Shown one piece after another: positions 51,389 to 59,129 of a stretch of 64,000 nucleotides of DNA. Source of the stretch: Thermotogota bacterium (lineage in GTDB: Bacteria > Thermotogota > Thermotogae > Mesoaciditogales > Mesoaciditogaceae); NCBI GenBank assembly GCA_026988035.1, contig JALSLY010000069.1, forward strand, positions 15,337 to 79,336, written 5' to 3'. Position 1 is the first letter of the stretch. Each line of letters begins with the position of its first letter. The notes beneath the pieces are model-generated. The model did not search any database. It had not been told where the DNA came from and saw only the letters and a list, made by a program, of their open reading frames with translations. Made by a program: the position numbers and the translations under genes.

Positions 51389-52081
51389 TTAACGTGTTAG
51401 TTTGTTGTAAAGTAGTTGAAAGGCGTGAACAGCCACTCTTTCTATTTCAGCAACCGTTAGCTTCAACGGCTCGATCATCATTAAAGGCATAATGATGATT
51501 AGATTAAAAAGTGCTTGTATTGAAAAACCGTAAACAACAAAAACCGCAAGCGAATTCAACGCTATGATCACTGCAAAAAATTCAAATCCTGCACTGTTAG
51601 AACGCGGGCGAAAGTCGAAAACCTTTAAAGTCAGATAGGCAATTTTTGAAAATACTGCGATAACAAAGGCACAAAACAGGAAAACCAAGAGCACCCACCA
51701 ATCACGAAACAGCGGTGGTATTTCAAATCCCACAATCCATCCAAGTTTGTAAAGAATCAAAACCAGCGACCAAAAGAGTGGCCCTTCAGCTAAAAAGATC
51801 GACAATCCATTTATCTTCATCATGATCGAGATCGACATTGGAACGATAAAGAGAATGAAAAACAGTGATCCACCTAAATCATTAAATGCAAAGATTATCA
51901 CGGAAGCCACCACAACGATTCTTAACCATTCAGAACGTGATTGATTCATGGCATACACAAGTGGAAACACAGCTAAGTAACTTATGGCCGTTCCAATCCC
52001 GTAGATCATTTGAAATGTATAGATAAGAGCAGTTAAAGCCCCCAAAATGGCACTTTCAGCATTTTGCCGTGCTTTAGTCAT
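51389..52081 (-). CDS. hypothetical integral membrane protein (about 6 TM segments)
   Basis: 230-aa ORF, strongly hydrophobic throughout. I recognise no catalytic motif. Confidence 0.65.
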   Translation of the reverse strand: MTKARQNAESAILGALTALIYTFQMIYGIGTAISYLAVFPLVYAMNQSRSEWLRIVVVASVIIFAFNDLGGSLFFILFIVPMSISIMMKINGLSIFLAEGPLFWSLVLILYKLGWIVGFEIPPLFRDWWVLLVFLFCAFVIAVFSKIAYLTLKVFDFRPRSNSAGFEFFAVIIALNSLAVFVVYGFSIQALFNLIIIMPLMMIEPLKLTVAEIERVAVHAFQLLYNKLTR

Positions 52082-52130
52082 CGAAGGTCGCCACCTTCCC
52101 CGCTCATAACATCAATACAAAGCTCTGCAC

Positions 52131-52394
52131 TTAACCATTCAATTCTTTTCTAAGCCCCTTTTGTGATGTGAAACCTGTTTTTTTCTGGATATTCTTGTGT
52201 TTTACTGCGGAACTTCTTTTCTCGATTGGACTCACAGCGAGTTTTAAAATATCTTCTGGAACTTTTGAAAGATTTTCCAAGTACATTTCAAGGGCTTTGC
52301 GCATAAGATAACTTTTGGGCCTGTCAAGTTTCTGGGCATATTTTTCAAGTTTCCTCTCAAGTTTTTCTGGCAATCTAAGAGATATCAATTTCAT
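52131..52394 (-). CDS. ribbon-helix-helix (CopG/MetJ-type) DNA-binding protein
   Basis: MKLISLRLPEKLERKLEKYAQKLDRPKSYLMRKALEMYLE is a textbook RHH strand-helix-helix N-terminus, followed by a basic tail. Confidence 0.75.
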   Translation of the reverse strand: MKLISLRLPEKLERKLEKYAQKLDRPKSYLMRKALEMYLENLSKVPEDILKLAVSPIEKRSSAVKHKNIQKKTGFTSQKGLRKELNG

Positions 52395-52509
52395 AGTATC
52401 ACCTCGTATTACATTATATCACAAAGCAAAAATTCATCTGCAAACAAAAAACGTTTAACGTTCCATTAACTTCCCACCCGTATAATTTTGTACAAACAAC
52501 AAATAATGG

Positions 52510-52524
52510 TGGTGGAGTCCACCA
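52510..52524. promoter_or_regulatory. 7-1-7 palindrome in the divergent intergenic region (candidate operator)
   Basis: TGGTGGA-G-TCCACCA read directly. It lies about 50 nt upstream of the first gene of the membrane complex and about 115 nt upstream of the divergent RHH gene. Confidence 0.35.
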
Positions 52525-52576
52525 GAAAGCTTTTTAGCCAATGACTCCTACCCATCCCACGGATAGGAGGTTTTTT

Positions 52577-53530
52577 ATGCTGTTAATTTTTCTAAGCATT
52601 TTGCAGTTGTTCTATGTGCTACTGCTTTCACCGTTAATCTTCGGAATCTTTTCAAAATTCGAAGAGAGAATCGAATCTAAAAAAGGACCAAGTATTTTTC
52701 AACCTTACTACGATCTTTTCAAACTTTTTAGAAAACAAGTCGTCGTCCCTGAGGTGTCGTCTCCGTTTTTTCATGTGGTGCCTTACGTAGAATTTGCATT
52801 GTACTCGCTTTTGACGTTAGTCCTACCAATAATAACGGCCTTTCCACTTGAATTTGGGCCAACGGTGGATTTCATCGGTGGAGGTTTGATCTTTGGAGCA
52901 GCAGCGCTGTTGAAGAAAATAGCATCTTTGGACAGTCGAAGCAATTATTCGCATCTTGGAGTTTCTCGAGCAGCAAGCATGGGAGCATTGGCAGAACCAA
53001 TAACGGTTTTAATATTCATTATGTTAGGCGTTATCTCAAAGACAAATAACCCTTACATCATAAACAACGTACTTCAAACATCATCAAGTTGGTATCTTTC
53101 GTTGACACACTGGTTTGTTGCCGCTGCATTTTTCATGATCTTGCTTGTTGAAACCGGAAAACTTCCAATAGAACATCATTCCACAGCTGAGCTTGGTATG
53201 ATTGATCAGGCAATGGATCTGGAGTACTCAGGAATGGACCTCGCCTTCTACAAATGGGGAGGATATATAAAGAAATTTTTGCTCATGAGTGTGTTTGTGA
53301 ACGTGTATACGGTGCCGTTTTTCGTACCTATGAAGTATAATCTGTCTTCGATTGCCATATATACAGGAATTCACTTTTTAAAGCTTCTCGGTCTTGTGAT
53401 TAGTATGGGGCTATTAGAGGAAAGTATTTCAAAATTCAGACTCTTCAAAAATTTCGATTACATGGCTATCTCCTTCTCTTTGGCCTTTCTGAGTTTCTTG
53501 GCGTTTTACACAACGAATGGAGGTTTCTAA
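52577..53530 (+). CDS. NuoH / HycD / HyfC-like membrane subunit
   Basis: A polytopic membrane protein of about 317 aa. The ATG at 52577 lies 7 nt after GGAGG. The charged loop motifs (PIEHHSTAELGMIDQAMDLEYSG) are typical of the NuoH/HycD quinone-chamber subunit family. Confidence 0.75.
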   Translation: MLLIFLSILQLFYVLLLSPLIFGIFSKFEERIESKKGPSIFQPYYDLFKLFRKQVVVPEVSSPFFHVVPYVEFALYSLLTLVLPIITAFPLEFGPTVDFIGGGLIFGAAALLKKIASLDSRSNYSHLGVSRAASMGALAEPITVLIFIMLGVISKTNNPYIINNVLQTSSSWYLSLTHWFVAAAFFMILLVETGKLPIEHHSTAELGMIDQAMDLEYSGMDLAFYKWGGYIKKFLLMSVFVNVYTVPFFVPMKYNLSSIAIYTGIHFLKLLGLVISMGLLEESISKFRLFKNFDYMAISFSLAFLSFLAFYTTNGGF

Positions 53531-53531
53531 G

Positions 53532-54167
53532 ATGGAGAAGTTTTTCGCACTTATTGGCTTTTTTGAGATACTGCTGGTTCTCTTTATGCAATGGGAAGTG
53601 TATACCAAGAAAATCATCACAACCTTTTCCATAGCGTCTTACACGATCGCCGTCTTTTTGTTTTATCTTGGAATCATGGAAAACAAGTATCTGGTCGTTA
53701 TCCTGGCAGTTCTCACGGCTGGGGTAAGAGGATTTTTTATACCATGGTTTATGAAAAAAAGAATAGTCAGGGATCCATGGAGAGAAAGGGAAATAAAACC
53801 AACGATAAGCACGGCTTTATCGATATTAATATCACTTTCTGTGGTAATCTTCGCTTACGTGCTGTACAGGATCACATTTTACGATTCGGTTCACCTTTCG
53901 GATGGTTCCATACCAATAGCACTGATTCTCCAGGGAGTTTTCTTAATGATTTCAAGAAGAAATGCCTTCATTCAGCTTATAGGCTACATGATGATGGAAA
54001 ACGCCATCTTTTTATTCGAGGGCTATCTTTTTCCAGCGCTCCCATTTATTGTTGAGGCGGGAGTTATTCTTGATCTGATAGGTATCATCGCGATAGCGGG
54101 AATTGTGGTTAAGATGATGAAAAACTCCACGACAGATTCAAATGAATTCGACGAGTTGAAAGGATGA
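53532..54167 (+). CDS. HyfE-like small membrane subunit (hydrogenase-4 component E family)
   Basis: About 211 aa with 6-7 TM segments. The size and position between HyfC-like and HyfF-like genes match hyf-type operon order. The ATG at 53532 follows GGAGG. Confidence 0.65.
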   Translation: MEKFFALIGFFEILLVLFMQWEVYTKKIITTFSIASYTIAVFLFYLGIMENKYLVVILAVLTAGVRGFFIPWFMKKRIVRDPWREREIKPTISTALSILISLSVVIFAYVLYRITFYDSVHLSDGSIPIALILQGVFLMISRRNAFIQLIGYMMMENAIFLFEGYLFPALPFIVEAGVILDLIGIIAIAGIVVKMMKNSTTDSNEFDELKG

Positions 54168-54173
54168 ATTGAG

Positions 54174-55553
54174 ATGGGATACATTTACTCACTTCCAATG
54201 ATTTTTACCGCTATAGGTGCCGTGCTGTGTTTGAGTAGGAGCATGTATTTTGAAGAATTTGTTTCCGTGATATCTGCCCTCGCCACAGTTGTTGTGACAG
54301 GCACTGTTGTTTTTCTTCCCGATTTTTCAAATGGCTTTCTCTATATAGATGGTCTTTCAAAAATCATGCTCATTATGATATCTGCCATATACACATCAAC
54401 AGTCATTTTCTCAACAACGTACATGAAGTATATAGAGAATCCTCTCTTTGAGAAGAATTTTTACTACTTTTTGATGAATCTCTTTGCGTTCACGATGTTC
54501 TTCACGGTTTCTGTTAACAATTTTGGGTTGATGTGGGTAGGAGTGGAAGCTACAACGGTCACAAGTGCACTCCTGGTAGCGACTGAAAACAACGAGTCAT
54601 CCATGGAAGCAACATGGAGGTACATAATAATCGTGTCGTCTGGTTTGATAATCTCACTGCTTTCGAACGTATTCATATACAGTGCCACACACACACTTTC
54701 ACTCTCGATGCTCATGTCTATGAAGGTCACAAATGCTGGTAAGATTTTAACGCTCGGCTCAATGATGGCCATTGTTGGATACGGAACAAAAGCCGGGATC
54801 TTTCCAATGCACACCTGGCTTCCGGACGTTCATGGCAAGGCACCAGCACCTGTTAGTGCCATATTTTCTGGTGTGCTCTTACCTGTGGCACTTTATGTCA
54901 TGGCTCGAATACTTCAAATTGTACCTGTTGAGAGTGTTAGAATATTCTCATTTGCACTTGGATTCTTGACAGTCTTAATTGCCGCAGTATTAATGGTGGC
55001 TCAAGGACATTACAAACGCCTTTTTGCATACTCAACAATGGAGAACATGGGAATGGCTCTGATCGGTTTATCACTTGGGAAATACGCTTTCATTGGGGCA
55101 ATAATTTTGTTAATATCGCATGCCTTTGCCAAGTCATCGGCATTTTTTCTTACCGGAAATGTGCTTGCGAAATACAAATCTCATAAAATGACTGATGTAA
55201 AAGGGATATCAAAGCGTATGCCTTTTACTGCCTATACACTCATGTTCTCTTCAATGGCTGTTACCGGCACGCCTCCTTTCGGCACATTCATAGGAGAGTT
55301 TATGATAATCTATGGCATGCTCTTGAACTTTCCACTCTTTTACACTTTAACACTTGTGGGATTCCTTGCACTGGCCTTCATAGCTGTAAATTTCAAGATC
55401 GGAAAGATGATCTTCTCAGAGTCCGATGGTGAAATGATGGAGAGAAAGAGAGTTGGAAGGATTGTACCCATGGTGAATACGTCCCTCGCCTTCCTTGTCG
55501 TCTTCTTAATACCGCAAATCCAGGAGATTCTTTCCAAGGGGATGATAAGATGA
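54174..55553 (+). CDS. Mrp/NuoM/N/HyfF-like antiporter-type membrane subunit
   Basis: Proton_antipo_M signature region: GYGTKAGIFPMHTWLPDVHGKAPAPVSAIFSGVLLPVALY ... AYSTMENMG. 459 aa. Confidence 0.85.
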   Translation: MGYIYSLPMIFTAIGAVLCLSRSMYFEEFVSVISALATVVVTGTVVFLPDFSNGFLYIDGLSKIMLIMISAIYTSTVIFSTTYMKYIENPLFEKNFYYFLMNLFAFTMFFTVSVNNFGLMWVGVEATTVTSALLVATENNESSMEATWRYIIIVSSGLIISLLSNVFIYSATHTLSLSMLMSMKVTNAGKILTLGSMMAIVGYGTKAGIFPMHTWLPDVHGKAPAPVSAIFSGVLLPVALYVMARILQIVPVESVRIFSFALGFLTVLIAAVLMVAQGHYKRLFAYSTMENMGMALIGLSLGKYAFIGAIILLISHAFAKSSAFFLTGNVLAKYKSHKMTDVKGISKRMPFTAYTLMFSSMAVTGTPPFGTFIGEFMIIYGMLLNFPLFYTLTLVGFLALAFIAVNFKIGKMIFSESDGEMMERKRVGRIVPMVNTSLAFLVVFLIPQIQEILSKGMIR

Positions 55554-56785
55554 AGAAACTTCTAGGTGCTTACATACAAGATGGTAGGAAGTATATCATC
55601 CTTCAAGAGAATGGAAAAGTTGTTGCGTTAGAAGGAAATGCAAGTGAGTTTAAGAATTCAGAGCTCCTGAAAAACAGAAATGAGTATGTAAAAAATGTGT
55701 TAGAAAAAGAAGAGATCTATGGCGATGACGTCTTCGATTTCAGATACGGTCCTGTCACAAGCGGAGTCGGAGAAGCTGGAGTTTACCATCTTTACACATA
55801 TGGCGAAAGAATTTTATCGGTAAAAATCGATACTTCTTATAAAAGGCGAGCCCTGGACGATAAAATGATAAGCTCTGATATTAACGATGCACTGAAACTC
55901 TCAGAAGAGATATGCGGTAACTTTGCCATTTCGCATTCCATAGCATTTTCAAGAGCCGTTGAGAACGCTCTGAAGATAGAAGTAAGTAGGGATATCAAAG
56001 CTTTGAAGGCGATTGCCATAGAACTCGAGAGAATTTACAACCACCTTTATGTGATATCCAGACTTGCCGGAGCCGCGGCTCAACAAGTCCTCGCCTCGCA
56101 TCTTATGGGCCTTTTTGAAGATTCGCTCGTTGTCAACAAAATCTTCTCTGGTTCCAGATACCTGATCAGATTCAACTCGATAGGCAGCGTGCTCAGATTT
56201 CCATCGCATGAAGAATTAAAAGATGTGACAGATAAGGTTAAAAAAATCAAAAGCGCCTTTTCGGAATTGTACAAGAATTCAATGTCGAGCGGGAATTACA
56301 TCGACAGGTTGCACCTCACCGCCACTTTAAGCGCAAAAGACGCGGAACTCATAGGGCTGACCGGTCCGAGCTTAAGAGCCTGTGGAGTGAAAGAAGACTT
56401 AAGGACTCATGATGAGATCTATCGCGGAATAAAAATAGTATCAGATGAAGAGGGGGATGCGCTTTCAAGAATGGAAGTGCGAGCCGGAGAGATTCTTGAA
56501 AGCTTGAAATTCATCCAGAAAACAGTTGATAATTTAAGCTTGGATAAAGCGATGCCTTTCATTTCAACTGAAAGTGGTGAAGGAATTGGATGGAGTGAAT
56601 CCCCCAGTGGAACGATCATCTACCATGTTGAGATAGAGAACTTTAGAATCAAGAGCGTTTATGTGTCAACGCCTTCCGTTTTCGGGATGTCTGCTATAGC
56701 ACATTCAATGGTTGGCAATATATTCACAGATTTTCCATTTGCTGTGGAGTCTTTTGGCGTCAATTTCTCAGACGCGGCGAGATGA
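55550..56785 (+). CDS. NuoD / HycE-large-subunit-like protein lacking the NiFe-binding cysteines
   Basis: 411 aa. The family blocks LSEEICGNFAISHS (position of RxCGxCxxxH), ELERIYNHL and GLTGPSLRACGVKEDLR are present. The C-terminus is ESFGVNFSDAAR (position of DPCxxCxxR). The start overlaps the upstream stop (ATGA). Confidence 0.8.
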   Translation: MKKLLGAYIQDGRKYIILQENGKVVALEGNASEFKNSELLKNRNEYVKNVLEKEEIYGDDVFDFRYGPVTSGVGEAGVYHLYTYGERILSVKIDTSYKRRALDDKMISSDINDALKLSEEICGNFAISHSIAFSRAVENALKIEVSRDIKALKAIAIELERIYNHLYVISRLAGAAAQQVLASHLMGLFEDSLVVNKIFSGSRYLIRFNSIGSVLRFPSHEELKDVTDKVKKIKSAFSELYKNSMSSGNYIDRLHLTATLSAKDAELIGLTGPSLRACGVKEDLRTHDEIYRGIKIVSDEEGDALSRMEVRAGEILESLKFIQKTVDNLSLDKAMPFISTESGEGIGWSESPSGTIIYHVEIENFRIKSVYVSTPSVFGMSAIAHSMVGNIFTDFPFAVESFGVNFSDAAR

Positions 56786-56797
56786 GGGGTGGTATTG

Positions 56798-57256
56798 ATG
56801 AAATGGTGGCCAATGGTTGGAATATCAAAGATGCTAACCGAGGATAAAAAGTACGAATCTAAAGCGCGTGTGAAAAAAATGGGGATTTTCAGAAGATCTT
56901 TTCACATCTATACGATAGACGTTGGAAATTCCAACATTCTCAATTTTGAAATGCGAGCACTTCAAACTCCAAAATACAACGTCCACAGATTCGGTATATA
57001 TTTTGCCGCTTCTCCACGACATGCAGATTTGTTGATCGTTTTGGGAAGGCCGACAAAAAAGATGGTCGCCCCCCTTTTGGAAACTATCAATCAAATTCCA
57101 GAACCTTTCGGTGTCATACTTCTAAAAGGCTGCGGGAGTAGCGGAATTGATCTTGACGAATTAAAACTTCCAAACGTTGTGGCAAGCGTGAATGGGTGTC
57201 CAGAGCCTTCGGAGATCCTCGCCATTCTTTTAAAAATATCTGGAAGGGTTGATTAA
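56798..57256 (+). CDS. NuoB / HycG-small-subunit-like protein with an incomplete Fe-S cysteine set
   Basis: SFHIYTIDVGNSNILNFE, YNVHRFGIYFAASPRHADLLIVLG, PEPFGVILLKGCGSSG and VNGCPEPSEIL are collinear with the NuoB/HycG blocks. The GTG at 56789 is an alternative start. Confidence 0.75.
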   Translation: MKWWPMVGISKMLTEDKKYESKARVKKMGIFRRSFHIYTIDVGNSNILNFEMRALQTPKYNVHRFGIYFAASPRHADLLIVLGRPTKKMVAPLLETINQIPEPFGVILLKGCGSSGIDLDELKLPNVVASVNGCPEPSEILAILLKISGRVD

Positions 57257-57257
57257 G

Positions 57258-59129
57258 ATGATTTGCATATACTTTTCTTTCCTGTTTTTTGCACTTGGAG
57301 CATTGACCACGTTTTCAAAGAGATTGAGCTACAGTATGGCAACGATCGCATCCGCTCTTGCATTCGTAACGGCGCTCTTGGGTATGCACACCACTTTCGC
57401 TTCCGGCACGTACCTACTCCTCAACGGGTTCAGCCTGAGCATAGGAATGGATCATACAAGCGCGATCTTTTTGCTTATCGCATCGATATCGTGGTTTGCC
57501 ATTTCACTGTACTCTATAGATTATGGCATGAATTATTCCAAAAAGATGCCGATTTTCTTCAACGCTGCACTTTTCGGAATGTTTCTCGTTTTGATAGCCA
57601 GAGATGCATTAACATTTATAGGTGGATGGGAGATAGCTACGATTTTCTCTTATCTTTTGATAATGGAACACAAACACTCTTTCAAAGAAGCGTTCGAATT
57701 TCTCGCGTTTGGTGAAATTTCAACCGTCTCATTACTCGTCGCCTTTGCATCCCTTTATCTCAAGAATCATTCGCTCGCAATCATTGGAGCACACGGAACC
57801 TGGATTTTTTTGCTCATGGCTACGATAGCATTCATGACAAAAATGGGTACCTATCCGTTGCACACATGGCTTATAGGTGCACATTCCAGAGCTCCTTCGA
57901 ACGTTTCCGCGTTTTTGAGTGCACCATTGACTTTGATGGGTGTTTACGGTCTGGTAAGGGCGTTATCCATAGCTGGTCAACCCGAATGGTGGGGCGTGGC
58001 GGCAATGATCTTTGGTGGATTTTCCGCGTTCTGGGGCGCTTTGCAAGCCGCAGCAGCCAAAGGGCTCAAAATATTACCGGCGTATTCAACTGTTGAAAAC
58101 AACGGGATGATTCTCGCGACGTTGGGATTGTCTGTAACTGCGTACAGTGCACATTTGGCAGTGTTATCTTCTTTTGCCATGATCACATCGCTGATCTTGC
58201 TTTTTGCACACAACACGACAAAATCACTTTTGTTCATGGCGGTAGGCCATGCAAAAGAAGCGCTTGATGAAGACACGATCGACAACGTCAGAGGTATATG
58301 GACATCAGTTGGCAAGATCCCGGCAATATCCATATTGATCTCGGGACTTTCTTTCAGTGCTTTTCCACCACTAATTGGATTTCTTGGCGAATGGATGACG
58401 CTGGAAGCGCTCTTTCAATCGTACAAATTTCCATCCATGTTAGATAGACTAAGCGCCGCATTTGTGGGAATACTAATAGCCCTTGCAATGGGAATGGCAG
58501 CGTTTTCAATGGTGAAACTCACAGGATACACGGCGCTTGGATATGATCACGGCAAAAAGGCAAGAAATATCTCATCATTCACCATGAAGCTTTCTGAAAT
58601 GCTCCTTTCTCTTACCGTTCTGTTGGCAGGACTCTTTTCTCCATACATATTGAAGTATTTTGGGTACGGGACTTTTCTATCCGGTCTCTTTGGAGTTCCA
58701 AAACCGTTTCTTATCGTTTCTTCTCACCCTGTCTTCGGTGTGGTTTCACCTACATTTCTGGCAGTCGTTATCGGAACTCTGTTTCTGTTTCCTCTGATAT
58801 TTTACTTGGCAAAATCGGGAAAAGTCAAAAGGGTTAGCGCCTGGAACGGTGGTATAGCTCTAAAAGAGGAAGAATACTTTACGGCACCGGCTTACTCGTT
58901 TACCCTTGAGTACATAATGAGAAAAGTGTACTCTATGAAAGAGATCAAGCATGGAAACAAAAGATACGTCTCAGTCAAAGATATTACAACATCATTTTAC
59001 AACGGCTTGAAACATGCAGTGGAAATCATGGCCAAATCCTTATCACTCACTTTGATGAACGGACACGTATATTCGTACGTACTGTACACGATGATCATGT
59101 TTGTTCTCCTCTTTTTTATGGTTAAGTAA
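57258..59129 (+). CDS. NuoL / HyfB / HycC-like antiporter-type membrane subunit
   Basis: About 623 aa. Proton_antipo_M region: KMGTYPLHTWLIGAHSRAPSNVSAFLSAPLTLMGVYGL ... AYSTVENNG. The TTG at 57249 is an alternative start. Confidence 0.85.
   Translation: MICIYFSFLFFALGALTTFSKRLSYSMATIASALAFVTALLGMHTTFASGTYLLLNGFSLSIGMDHTSAIFLLIASISWFAISLYSIDYGMNYSKKMPIFFNAALFGMFLVLIARDALTFIGGWEIATIFSYLLIMEHKHSFKEAFEFLAFGEISTVSLLVAFASLYLKNHSLAIIGAHGTWIFLLMATIAFMTKMGTYPLHTWLIGAHSRAPSNVSAFLSAPLTLMGVYGLVRALSIAGQPEWWGVAAMIFGGFSAFWGALQAAAAKGLKILPAYSTVENNGMILATLGLSVTAYSAHLAVLSSFAMITSLILLFAHNTTKSLLFMAVGHAKEALDEDTIDNVRGIWTSVGKIPAISILISGLSFSAFPPLIGFLGEWMTLEALFQSYKFPSMLDRLSAAFVGILIALAMGMAAFSMVKLTGYTALGYDHGKKARNISSFTMKLSEMLLSLTVLLAGLFSPYILKYFGYGTFLSGLFGVPKPFLIVSSHPVFGVVSPTFLAVVIGTLFLFPLIFYLAKSGKVKRVSAWNGGIALKEEEYFTAPAYSFTLEYIMRKVYSMKEIKHGNKRYVSVKDITTSFYNGLKHAVEIMAKSLSLTLMNGHVYSYVLYTMIMFVLLFFMVK

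Follow-up and report, generated by a model that had tools for sequence, protein, structure and literature searches.

A NuoB/HycG-like small subunit encoded at 56798–57256 (+) in a 64,000-nucleotide stretch of Thermotogota bacterium DNA (contig JALSLY010000069.1; hereafter the window) retains only two of the four cysteines that hold the proximal [4Fe-4S] (N2-type) cluster in HycG and MbhJ. The protein is probably a cluster-free structural cap in an Ehr-type machine that would be induced by fluoride and translocate ions independently of redox chemistry, in a lineage that would be an intermediate in the dismantling of the N2-type site. Its gene is the fifth of six in a tightly packed operon (NuoH-, HyfE-, HyfF-, NuoD-, NuoB- and HyfB-like).

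The open reading frame (ORF) lister started the NuoB-like frame at GTG 56789, giving 155 amino acids. Because all homologues begin at the same point (MKWW in the window protein) and a Shine-Dalgarno (SD) sequence (GAGGGGTGG) lies 5′ of ATG 56798, the start was placed at this ATG and the protein taken as 152 amino acids. It was compared by phmmer with all PDB chains. The top match was E. coli HycG (7z0s_G, E = 1e-13) and the next P. furiosus MbhJ (6cfw_J, E = 3e-12); complex I PSST/NuoB chains came after these. Window IDVGNSNILNFE aligned with HycG VDCGGCNGCEIE and MbhJ NSGSCNGCDIE, so that the CxxC pair of these proteins is replaced by IDVGNSNILNFE and ligand positions 1 and 2 fall on Ser45 (codon TCC, 56930–56932) and Leu48 (codon CTC, 56939–56941). 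Ligand 3 is Cys112 (TGC, 57131–57133; window KGCGSSG aligned to HycG GACGNSG) and ligand 4 is Cys134 (TGT, 57197–57199; window NGCPEP aligned to HycG PGCPP). The first-pass annotation, made from the sequence alone, had described the loss of both cysteines of a D.GSCNGCE.E block, the retention of the third and fourth ligand positions and the absence of any further cysteine. All three descriptions hold; the protein contains exactly two cysteines.

Ser, Leu, Cys and Cys thus stand where the small subunit of a group 4 [NiFe]-hydrogenase has four cysteines (CxxC...C...C). The family profiles scored the protein below their cut-offs, with 22.9 bits for PF01058 (NuoB/Oxidored_q6; cut-off 27), 51.2 for TIGR01957 (cut-off 142.7) and 57.7 for NF005012 (cut-off 116). 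An AlphaFold2 model built on 50 homologues (predicted local distance difference test score, pLDDT, 86.8; predicted TM-score, pTM, 0.80) was searched with Foldseek and matched HycG, MbhJ and PSST chains with probability 1.00. Query-normalized TM-scores were 0.60–0.69 for nearly all matches listed, with HycG and MbhJ at about 0.67–0.69. The subunit is predicted on this basis to retain the NuoB/PSST fold.

Homologue sets were assembled by word-indexed search (83 sequences) and by genome scan (71 loci). The loci belonged to Mesoaciditogaceae (Mesoaciditoga, Athalassotoga), Spirochaetota, Bacteroidota (Lentimicrobiaceae, Paludibacter, Puia), Ignavibacterium, Desulfurellales, Hippea and Campylobacterota, and isolate names pointed to a hot-spring or hydrothermal origin for many of them. 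Most are from metagenome-assembled genomes (MAGs), and absences reported below are provisional except in the complete genome of the cultured Desulfurellales member Desulfurella acetivorans A63. A profile search of 1.84 billion representative sequences returned a tight family of about eight clusters (50% identity) at 150 bits or more; below these scores lay canonical four-cysteine small subunits, at 132 bits or less.

Ligand positions were then tabulated in about 135 NuoB-like sequences from five phyla. Position 2 was Leu in almost all, Ile, Val or Met in four and Cys in none. Position 1 was mostly Ser, Asp or Asn, with Cys in five close relatives of the window protein (L004, L005, L008, P0006, P0008). 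Only 17 sequences had Cys at both positions 3 and 4 (SLCC in 10, CLCC in five, DLCC in two), and all of them fall in the window's own clade. Their sources are Mesoaciditoga MAGs and two MAGs of Spirochaetota, and each shares at least 59% identity with the window protein. Five other sequences had Cys at position 3 alone and the remainder had neither. The first-motif cysteine was shifted by one residue in some Bacteroidota/Ignavibacteria and Spirochaetales sequences (GC.N.LCFE, DAGCDN), which have no third or fourth ligand. The confinement of the two retained cysteines to one clade is a new observation. The first-pass annotation had staked its claim on conservation of the substitutions among orthologues, and they are conserved, with Leu near-invariant at ligand 2 and Ser, Asp or Asn family-wide at ligand 1. 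A sequencing or strain-specific artifact, which it had also allowed for, is ruled out by the recurrence of the same substitutions in the approximately 135 homologues. Near relatives that carry this operon lack the cysteine pair, and a cluster is therefore not needed for the function of the family.

The other subunits were assigned by domain searches. The NuoH/HycD-like membrane subunit (52577–53530, +; 317 amino acids from ATG 52577; PF00146, E = 2.9e-25) is the most conserved protein of the operon, with 59%–85% identity across loci; the ORF lister had put its start at ATG 52541 in place of ATG 52577. It is followed by a HyfE-like membrane subunit (53517–54167, +), which matched NF008556, "hydrogenase 4 membrane subunit", at E = 2.6e-10, under the cut-off of that model, and by a HyfF/NuoN-like antiporter-type subunit (54174–55553, +; PF00361, E = 2.6e-50; NF005042 HyfF, 436 bits against a cut-off of 437). 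The NuoD/HycE-like large subunit (55550–56785, +; PF00346, E = 6.2e-21) is also matched by PF00374. Downstream of the NuoB-like gene is a HyfB/NuoL-like antiporter-type subunit (57258–59129, +; PF00361, E = 3.9e-29; NF005046 HyfB, 329 bits), for which the ORF lister gave TTG 57249 and the likely start is ATG 57258, yielding 623 amino acids, the length seen in its nearest relatives. In the two antiporter-type subunits the Glu of transmembrane helix (TM) 5, the Lys of TM7, the His of TM8, the central Lys and the Glu of TM12 are all retained, and these channel residues align with those of E. coli NuoL/M/N and HycC.

The large subunit has no NiFe-binding cysteine set. Its four NiFe positions read C-F-N-D within EICGNFAISHS and FGVNFSDAAR; across 67 loci the family pattern is C-F-[NHFYS]-D, embedded in the conserved motifs xxCGNFAxSHS and FGxxF[AS]DAAR. 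The first NiFe cysteine is present in nearly all members, and Phe at the second position and Asp at the fourth are invariant. From these sequences the site looks like one that was rebuilt and conserved, not one that decayed.

No ferredoxin-type domain was detected by domain searches in any of the six operon proteins, nor were NuoC, NuoI or NuoE-G. The six genes occur in the identical order H-E-F-D-B-L in all of the more than 60 loci, without an iron-sulfur (Fe-S) ferredoxin-like subunit of the HycF/NuoI type, and HypD was not found in the window's 97.6%-complete genome. The L1/L2 CxxC motifs, 2x[4Fe-4S] subunit and, going by HypD, Hyp maturation genes of group 4 [NiFe]-hydrogenases are thus missing. 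MrpE, MrpF and MrpG families were not found among the six proteins either; in this comparison with the MrpA-G set, PF00361-type (MrpA/D-like) and HyfE-like subunits were the only ones recovered. The composition is that of an Ehr complex: the membrane subunits comprise a NuoH-like, a HyfE-like and two antiporter-like proteins, and they are joined by a NuoB-like small subunit and a large subunit homologous to group 4 [NiFe]-hydrogenases and NuoD. The statement in the first-pass annotation that the soluble arm would have no electron path is borne out at the operon level by the missing ferredoxin subunit, the C-F-[NHFYS]-D pattern and the missing HypD, and its interpretation of the assembly as a redox-dead relative of an energy-converting hydrogenase is supported by the sequence data. 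The same genome carries a canonical NuoB-like/NuoD-like pair on another contig (C28:4291–6365; L001, L078, L080), probably part of an Mbx/MBS- or NDH-type complex, whose small subunit keeps the usual cysteine motifs (CTGC, GSC, AGC). Clusters of this kind are therefore within the organism's capacity, and the ligand loss is specific to the gene at 56798–57256.

A fluoride riboswitch aptamer (crcB motif, RF01734) was identified by Rfam cmscan at 52499–52557 (+), directly 5′ of the first gene and on the same strand, with 37.0 bits (gathering score 34) and E = 1.3e-6. It is the one Rfam family above threshold in the whole window and was recovered again by a whole-genome search. The sequence 3′ of the aptamer (CTCCTAcccatcccacggaTAGGAGgTTTTTTATG) contains an expression platform (52545–52576, +), read directly from the letters, which consists of a hairpin (CTCCTA...TAGGAG) and a run of six T. 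The 5′ arm of the hairpin is the 3′ pseudoknot strand of the aptamer and the 3′ arm is the AGGAGG SD sequence of ATG 52577. This is the usual ON-switch layout, in which fluoride binding would free the SD sequence and prevent termination. For the relatives, a covariance model was seeded from Rfam-verified riboswitch hits and cross-checked with Rfam. Of the 56 loci with enough upstream DNA, 49 had a riboswitch-like element no more than 300 nucleotides upstream of the NuoH-like gene, and in four further loci one lay about 1 kb upstream; Rfam itself confirmed the riboswitch above the gathering score in seven of nine diverse loci. A strict regular expression had recovered only six loci, was too narrow and was superseded by the covariance model. 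In PMC8004769, which cites Baker et al. (2012), "formate hydrogen lyase" genes appear among those associated with the crcB motif. Beyond this mention, searches of the literature found no statement that the fluoride-linked complexes are of the Ehr type and free of Fe-S clusters.

From the ligand residues, the synteny, the riboswitch, the selection on the gene and the fold, we infer that the NuoB-like subunit lacks a cluster and that the complex translocates ions. In the proposed mechanism, fluoride would bind the riboswitch and switch on expression of the Ehr-type operon. The CxxC loop appears to have been converted to a conserved D-x-G-N-S-N-x-L-N-F-E loop, by which the proximal [4Fe-4S] (N2-type) site would have been dismantled, and the residues that line the pocket at ligands 3 and 4 seem to have turned into an acidic patch in most lineages. 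The window's lineage would be the least derived, with Cys112, Cys134, Ala71 and Gly111 kept and no usable first ligand pair. The NuoB-like subunit is most likely without an electron-transfer cluster and, together with the NuoD-like and NuoH-like subunits, probably closes a cytoplasmic chamber coupled to the two intact antiporter-type proton channels. The whole complex would then transport ions (H+ and/or Na+, possibly an anion) in the response to fluoride stress, and no redox chemistry would be involved. A conservative guess is that it handles protons or sodium under HF/F- stress.

The history of the site was examined in a maximum-likelihood tree of five concatenated subunits from which the ligand columns were masked. 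The branch to the E. coli Hyc outgroup was so long (5.2 changes per column) that rooting was unreliable, and only the unrooted pattern was used. The Cys-Cys Mesoaciditoga clade (support 100) groups, at support 99, with a sister Athalassotoga clade in which ligand 3 is an acidic residue and ligand 4 is deleted, with the operon and riboswitch kept. Elsewhere in the tree lie L009, which is also Cys-Cys, and L027 and L056, which have ligand 3 only; the nearest outgroups to the family have four cysteines. Given this pattern and these outgroups, the simplest history would be a family ancestor that already lacked the CxxC pair and had ligands 3 and 4, which were then lost at least five times independently. 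Pairwise ratios of nonsynonymous to synonymous substitution (dN/dS) were 0.09–0.26 for the NuoB-like gene, indicating purifying selection and therefore a functional protein.

Several observations in the window's clade weigh against a pocket that is simply empty. The two GC dipeptides show no variation in any of the 17 members, whose identity goes down to 53%, and stand out in the otherwise variable stretch 105–140. TGC and TGT alternate synonymously at both cysteine codons; the pair is therefore selected within the clade and not drifting neutrally. The clade keeps the canonical small residues Ala71 and Gly111, where other clades have Asp or Glu at 71 and an acidic run at 110–112, and this retention would fit a pocket that is still occupied. 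Ser, Cys and Asp, the residues found at ligand position 1 in the clade, can each ligate iron.

A rival proposal is that the Mesoaciditoga/Spirochaetota clade binds a non-canonical metal center in the old pocket, as a structural element or sensor and not as a relay. Such a center might be a [4Fe-4S] or [2Fe-2S] cluster that has Cys112, Cys134 and Ser/Cys/Asp45 as ligands and a vacant fourth site, or a mononuclear metal. In favor of the proposal are the invariance of the pair despite synonymous codon change, the third cysteine at ligand 1 in the five CLCC members and the Asp in two others, and the co-variation of Ala71, Lys110 and Gly111 with the cysteines. It is nonetheless unlikely. Ligand 2 is Leu in every member of the clade, the window protein supplies two thiolates only, and cysteine-less relatives have Ser or Asp at position 1 just as often, so that these residues are not tied to a cluster. 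The NuoD-like partner offers no compensating residue, since no clade-specific Cys or His that could complete the ligand set was found in it, the only clade-specific residues being Val214 and Ser306. Compensation between the two subunits had been considered for L004 and L005, in which the first NiFe cysteine of the NuoD-like protein is Ser and ligand 1 of the NuoB-like protein is Cys; this was a single event, contradicted by L008, and was rejected. In addition, the sister clade works without either cysteine and no electron donor or acceptor module is present in the operon. Invariance of the pair is itself not exceptional, as 52 of 152 sites, about a third, are invariant within the 17-member clade.

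It is more doubtful still that the former cofactor pockets were rebuilt as an anion site, making the complex a fluoride (F-/HF) exporter driven by the proton-motive force, or a fluoride-gated ion pump, in place of Fluc (CrcB). Conserved Asn, Phe and Ser motifs do occupy the positions of the lost metal ligands, with GNSNxLNFE in the NuoB-like and CGNFAxSHS ... F[AS]DAAR in the NuoD-like subunit. CrcB was not found in the window's genome and was missing from 30 of 50 operon-carrying genomes, including 12 of 12 Mesoaciditogaceae and the complete D. acetivorans genome. Members of the Desulfurellales/Campylobacterota also lacked it; Bacteroidota, Ignavibacteria and Spirochaetales mostly had CrcB.

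That Cys112 and Cys134 form a disulfide or thiol redox switch, stabilizing or regulating the subunit after cluster loss, is improbable. In the canonical fold (HycG, MbhJ, Nqo6), ligands 3 and 4 face the same cubane and hence are neighbors in space, and for this reason the two cysteines would be close to one another in a protein whose predicted fold is retained; they are also conserved as a pair within the clade. Against such a switch stand the reducing cytoplasm presumed for an anaerobe-type member of the Thermotogota and the five other family members in which the position-3 cysteine stands alone. A decaying pseudogene or assembly artifact, with the cysteine losses as noise, is refuted by the intact ORF, the dN/dS of about 0.1, the confident fold prediction, the same substitutions in about 135 homologues of five phyla and the strict six-gene synteny.

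The reading as a cluster-free cap in an Ehr-type translocator was compared with known systems. Ehr complexes are relatives of group 4 hydrogenases in which the NiFe ligands are missing and which have no known function (PMC6349859, PMC12342949, PMC7894505, PMC4758237, PMC7304191), as exemplified by GSU0739-0745 of Geobacter sulfurreducens, encoding EhrA-D, L and S (Coppi, 2005; Marreiros et al., 2013; cited in PMC7894505, PMC4758237, PMC6349859). The Geobacter complex and the window operon share the subunit set (NuoL-like, NuoH-like, HyfE-like, a second antiporter-like, and large and small subunits), and in both the large subunit is without the NiFe cysteines. In published discussions of Ehr, a redox partner, for example formate dehydrogenase, is still presumed (PMC6349859). 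The window subfamily, in contrast, is tight, lies behind a fluoride riboswitch and encodes no redox partner in its operon, and its small subunit lacks the canonical first ligand pair in every member and all four ligands in most. Literature searches for cysteine loss in Ehr small subunits gave general statements on Ehr only, Marreiros 2013 lying outside their reach.

HycG (PDB 7Z0S/7Z0T) and MbhJ (6CFW), the best sequence and fold matches, share with the window protein the PRHAD motif as well as the third and fourth ligand positions. They differ in their CxxC pair and in a [4Fe-4S] cluster that sits beside a NiFe site and a 2x[4Fe-4S] subunit, partners that the window protein does not have; the window protein has Ser and Leu at ligands 1 and 2 and a shorter loop between ligands 3 and 4. 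NuoB/PSST/Nqo6 of complex I, which binds cluster N2, has the same fold and the same operon position by NuoD-like and NuoH-like genes, whereas the window protein lacks the tandem CC ligands and its operon lacks NuoI, NuoC and NuoE-G. Complex I modules are used without redox chemistry in the DAB/Cup CO2-uptake systems. The Mrp cation/proton antiporter is another such redox-free user (PMC7419157). The likeness to Mrp, which is partly our inference, lies in antiporter-type subunits with intact Glu/Lys/His channels that operate without electron transfer; Mrp has no NuoB/NuoD/NuoH-like module, however, and in the window operon this module is kept under purifying selection. With fluoride regulons the operon shares the RF01734 element directly upstream and, in relatives, adjoining MutS-like, CrcB and other fluoride-regulon genes, but searchable papers connect the crcB motif with "formate hydrogen lyase" and not with a cofactor-less Ehr type.

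Ehr complexes, whose function has been open since 2005, occur widely and are related to complex I and to membrane hydrogenases. Here, the last Fe-S site appears to be dismantled stepwise, from four cysteines in the nearest canonical relatives through three or two in the Mesoaciditoga clade to one or none elsewhere. The proton channels, the fold and purifying selection all persist through the cysteine loss, which argues that a complex I-type machine can work without electron transfer. The riboswitch provides an experimental handle, one member of the family is in the cultured D. acetivorans A63, and the Cys-Cys clade offers a natural comparison on whether any metal remains.

Fluoride-related genes were also surveyed in the operon-carrying genomes. 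Four riboswitch-like hits were obtained in the window's genome, and two exceeded the Rfam gathering score. A second fluoride riboswitch besides that of the operon (contig C77:14852–14922, L074; 43.3 bits) precedes a 261-amino-acid ORF and a MutS-domain-V-like ORF, a pair that looks like a split version of a MutS-like gene of about 525 amino acids. In Athalassotoga/Mesoaciditoga MAGs (L010, L011, L014, L018), a single gene of this kind is divergent beside the operon and has its own riboswitch. MutS-like genes were seen by eye among riboswitch-controlled neighbors in other loci as well. One long CBS-type CLC gene is present in the window's genome, away from any riboswitch. The CLC genes found all contain GREGP and are mostly about 590 amino acids long; they were considered as possible CLC-F proteins that might supply the missing exporter. 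The complete D. acetivorans A63 genome contains a single fluoride riboswitch, located in front of the Ehr-type operon (L066/L084/L099; CP007051, approximately 592.7–593.9 kb). A 399-amino-acid CLC-like ORF lies about 360 nucleotides away on the opposite strand and, matching positions 1–247 only of the hidden Markov model, may be truncated.

Divergent from the window operon, at 51389–52394 (-), are a CopG/ribbon-helix-helix-type regulator (PF01402) and a 230-amino-acid polytopic membrane protein without a Pfam match. Two Bacteroidota MAGs each carry two separate copies of the six-gene operon (L015 and L029 in WY2.bin60; L023 and L062 in WY4.bin70). Extra riboswitch-like elements were found in Bacteroidota/Ignavibacteria at L021, L023, L045 (downstream of the operon), L036 (10368–11618) and L069 (2622–3099). 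The genes behind them, assigned by eye, are a metallophosphoesterase-like gene (about 233 amino acids), a cyclopropane-fatty-acid-synthase-like methyltransferase (about 373 amino acids) and CrcB, and from their gene content these loci look like small fluoride islands.

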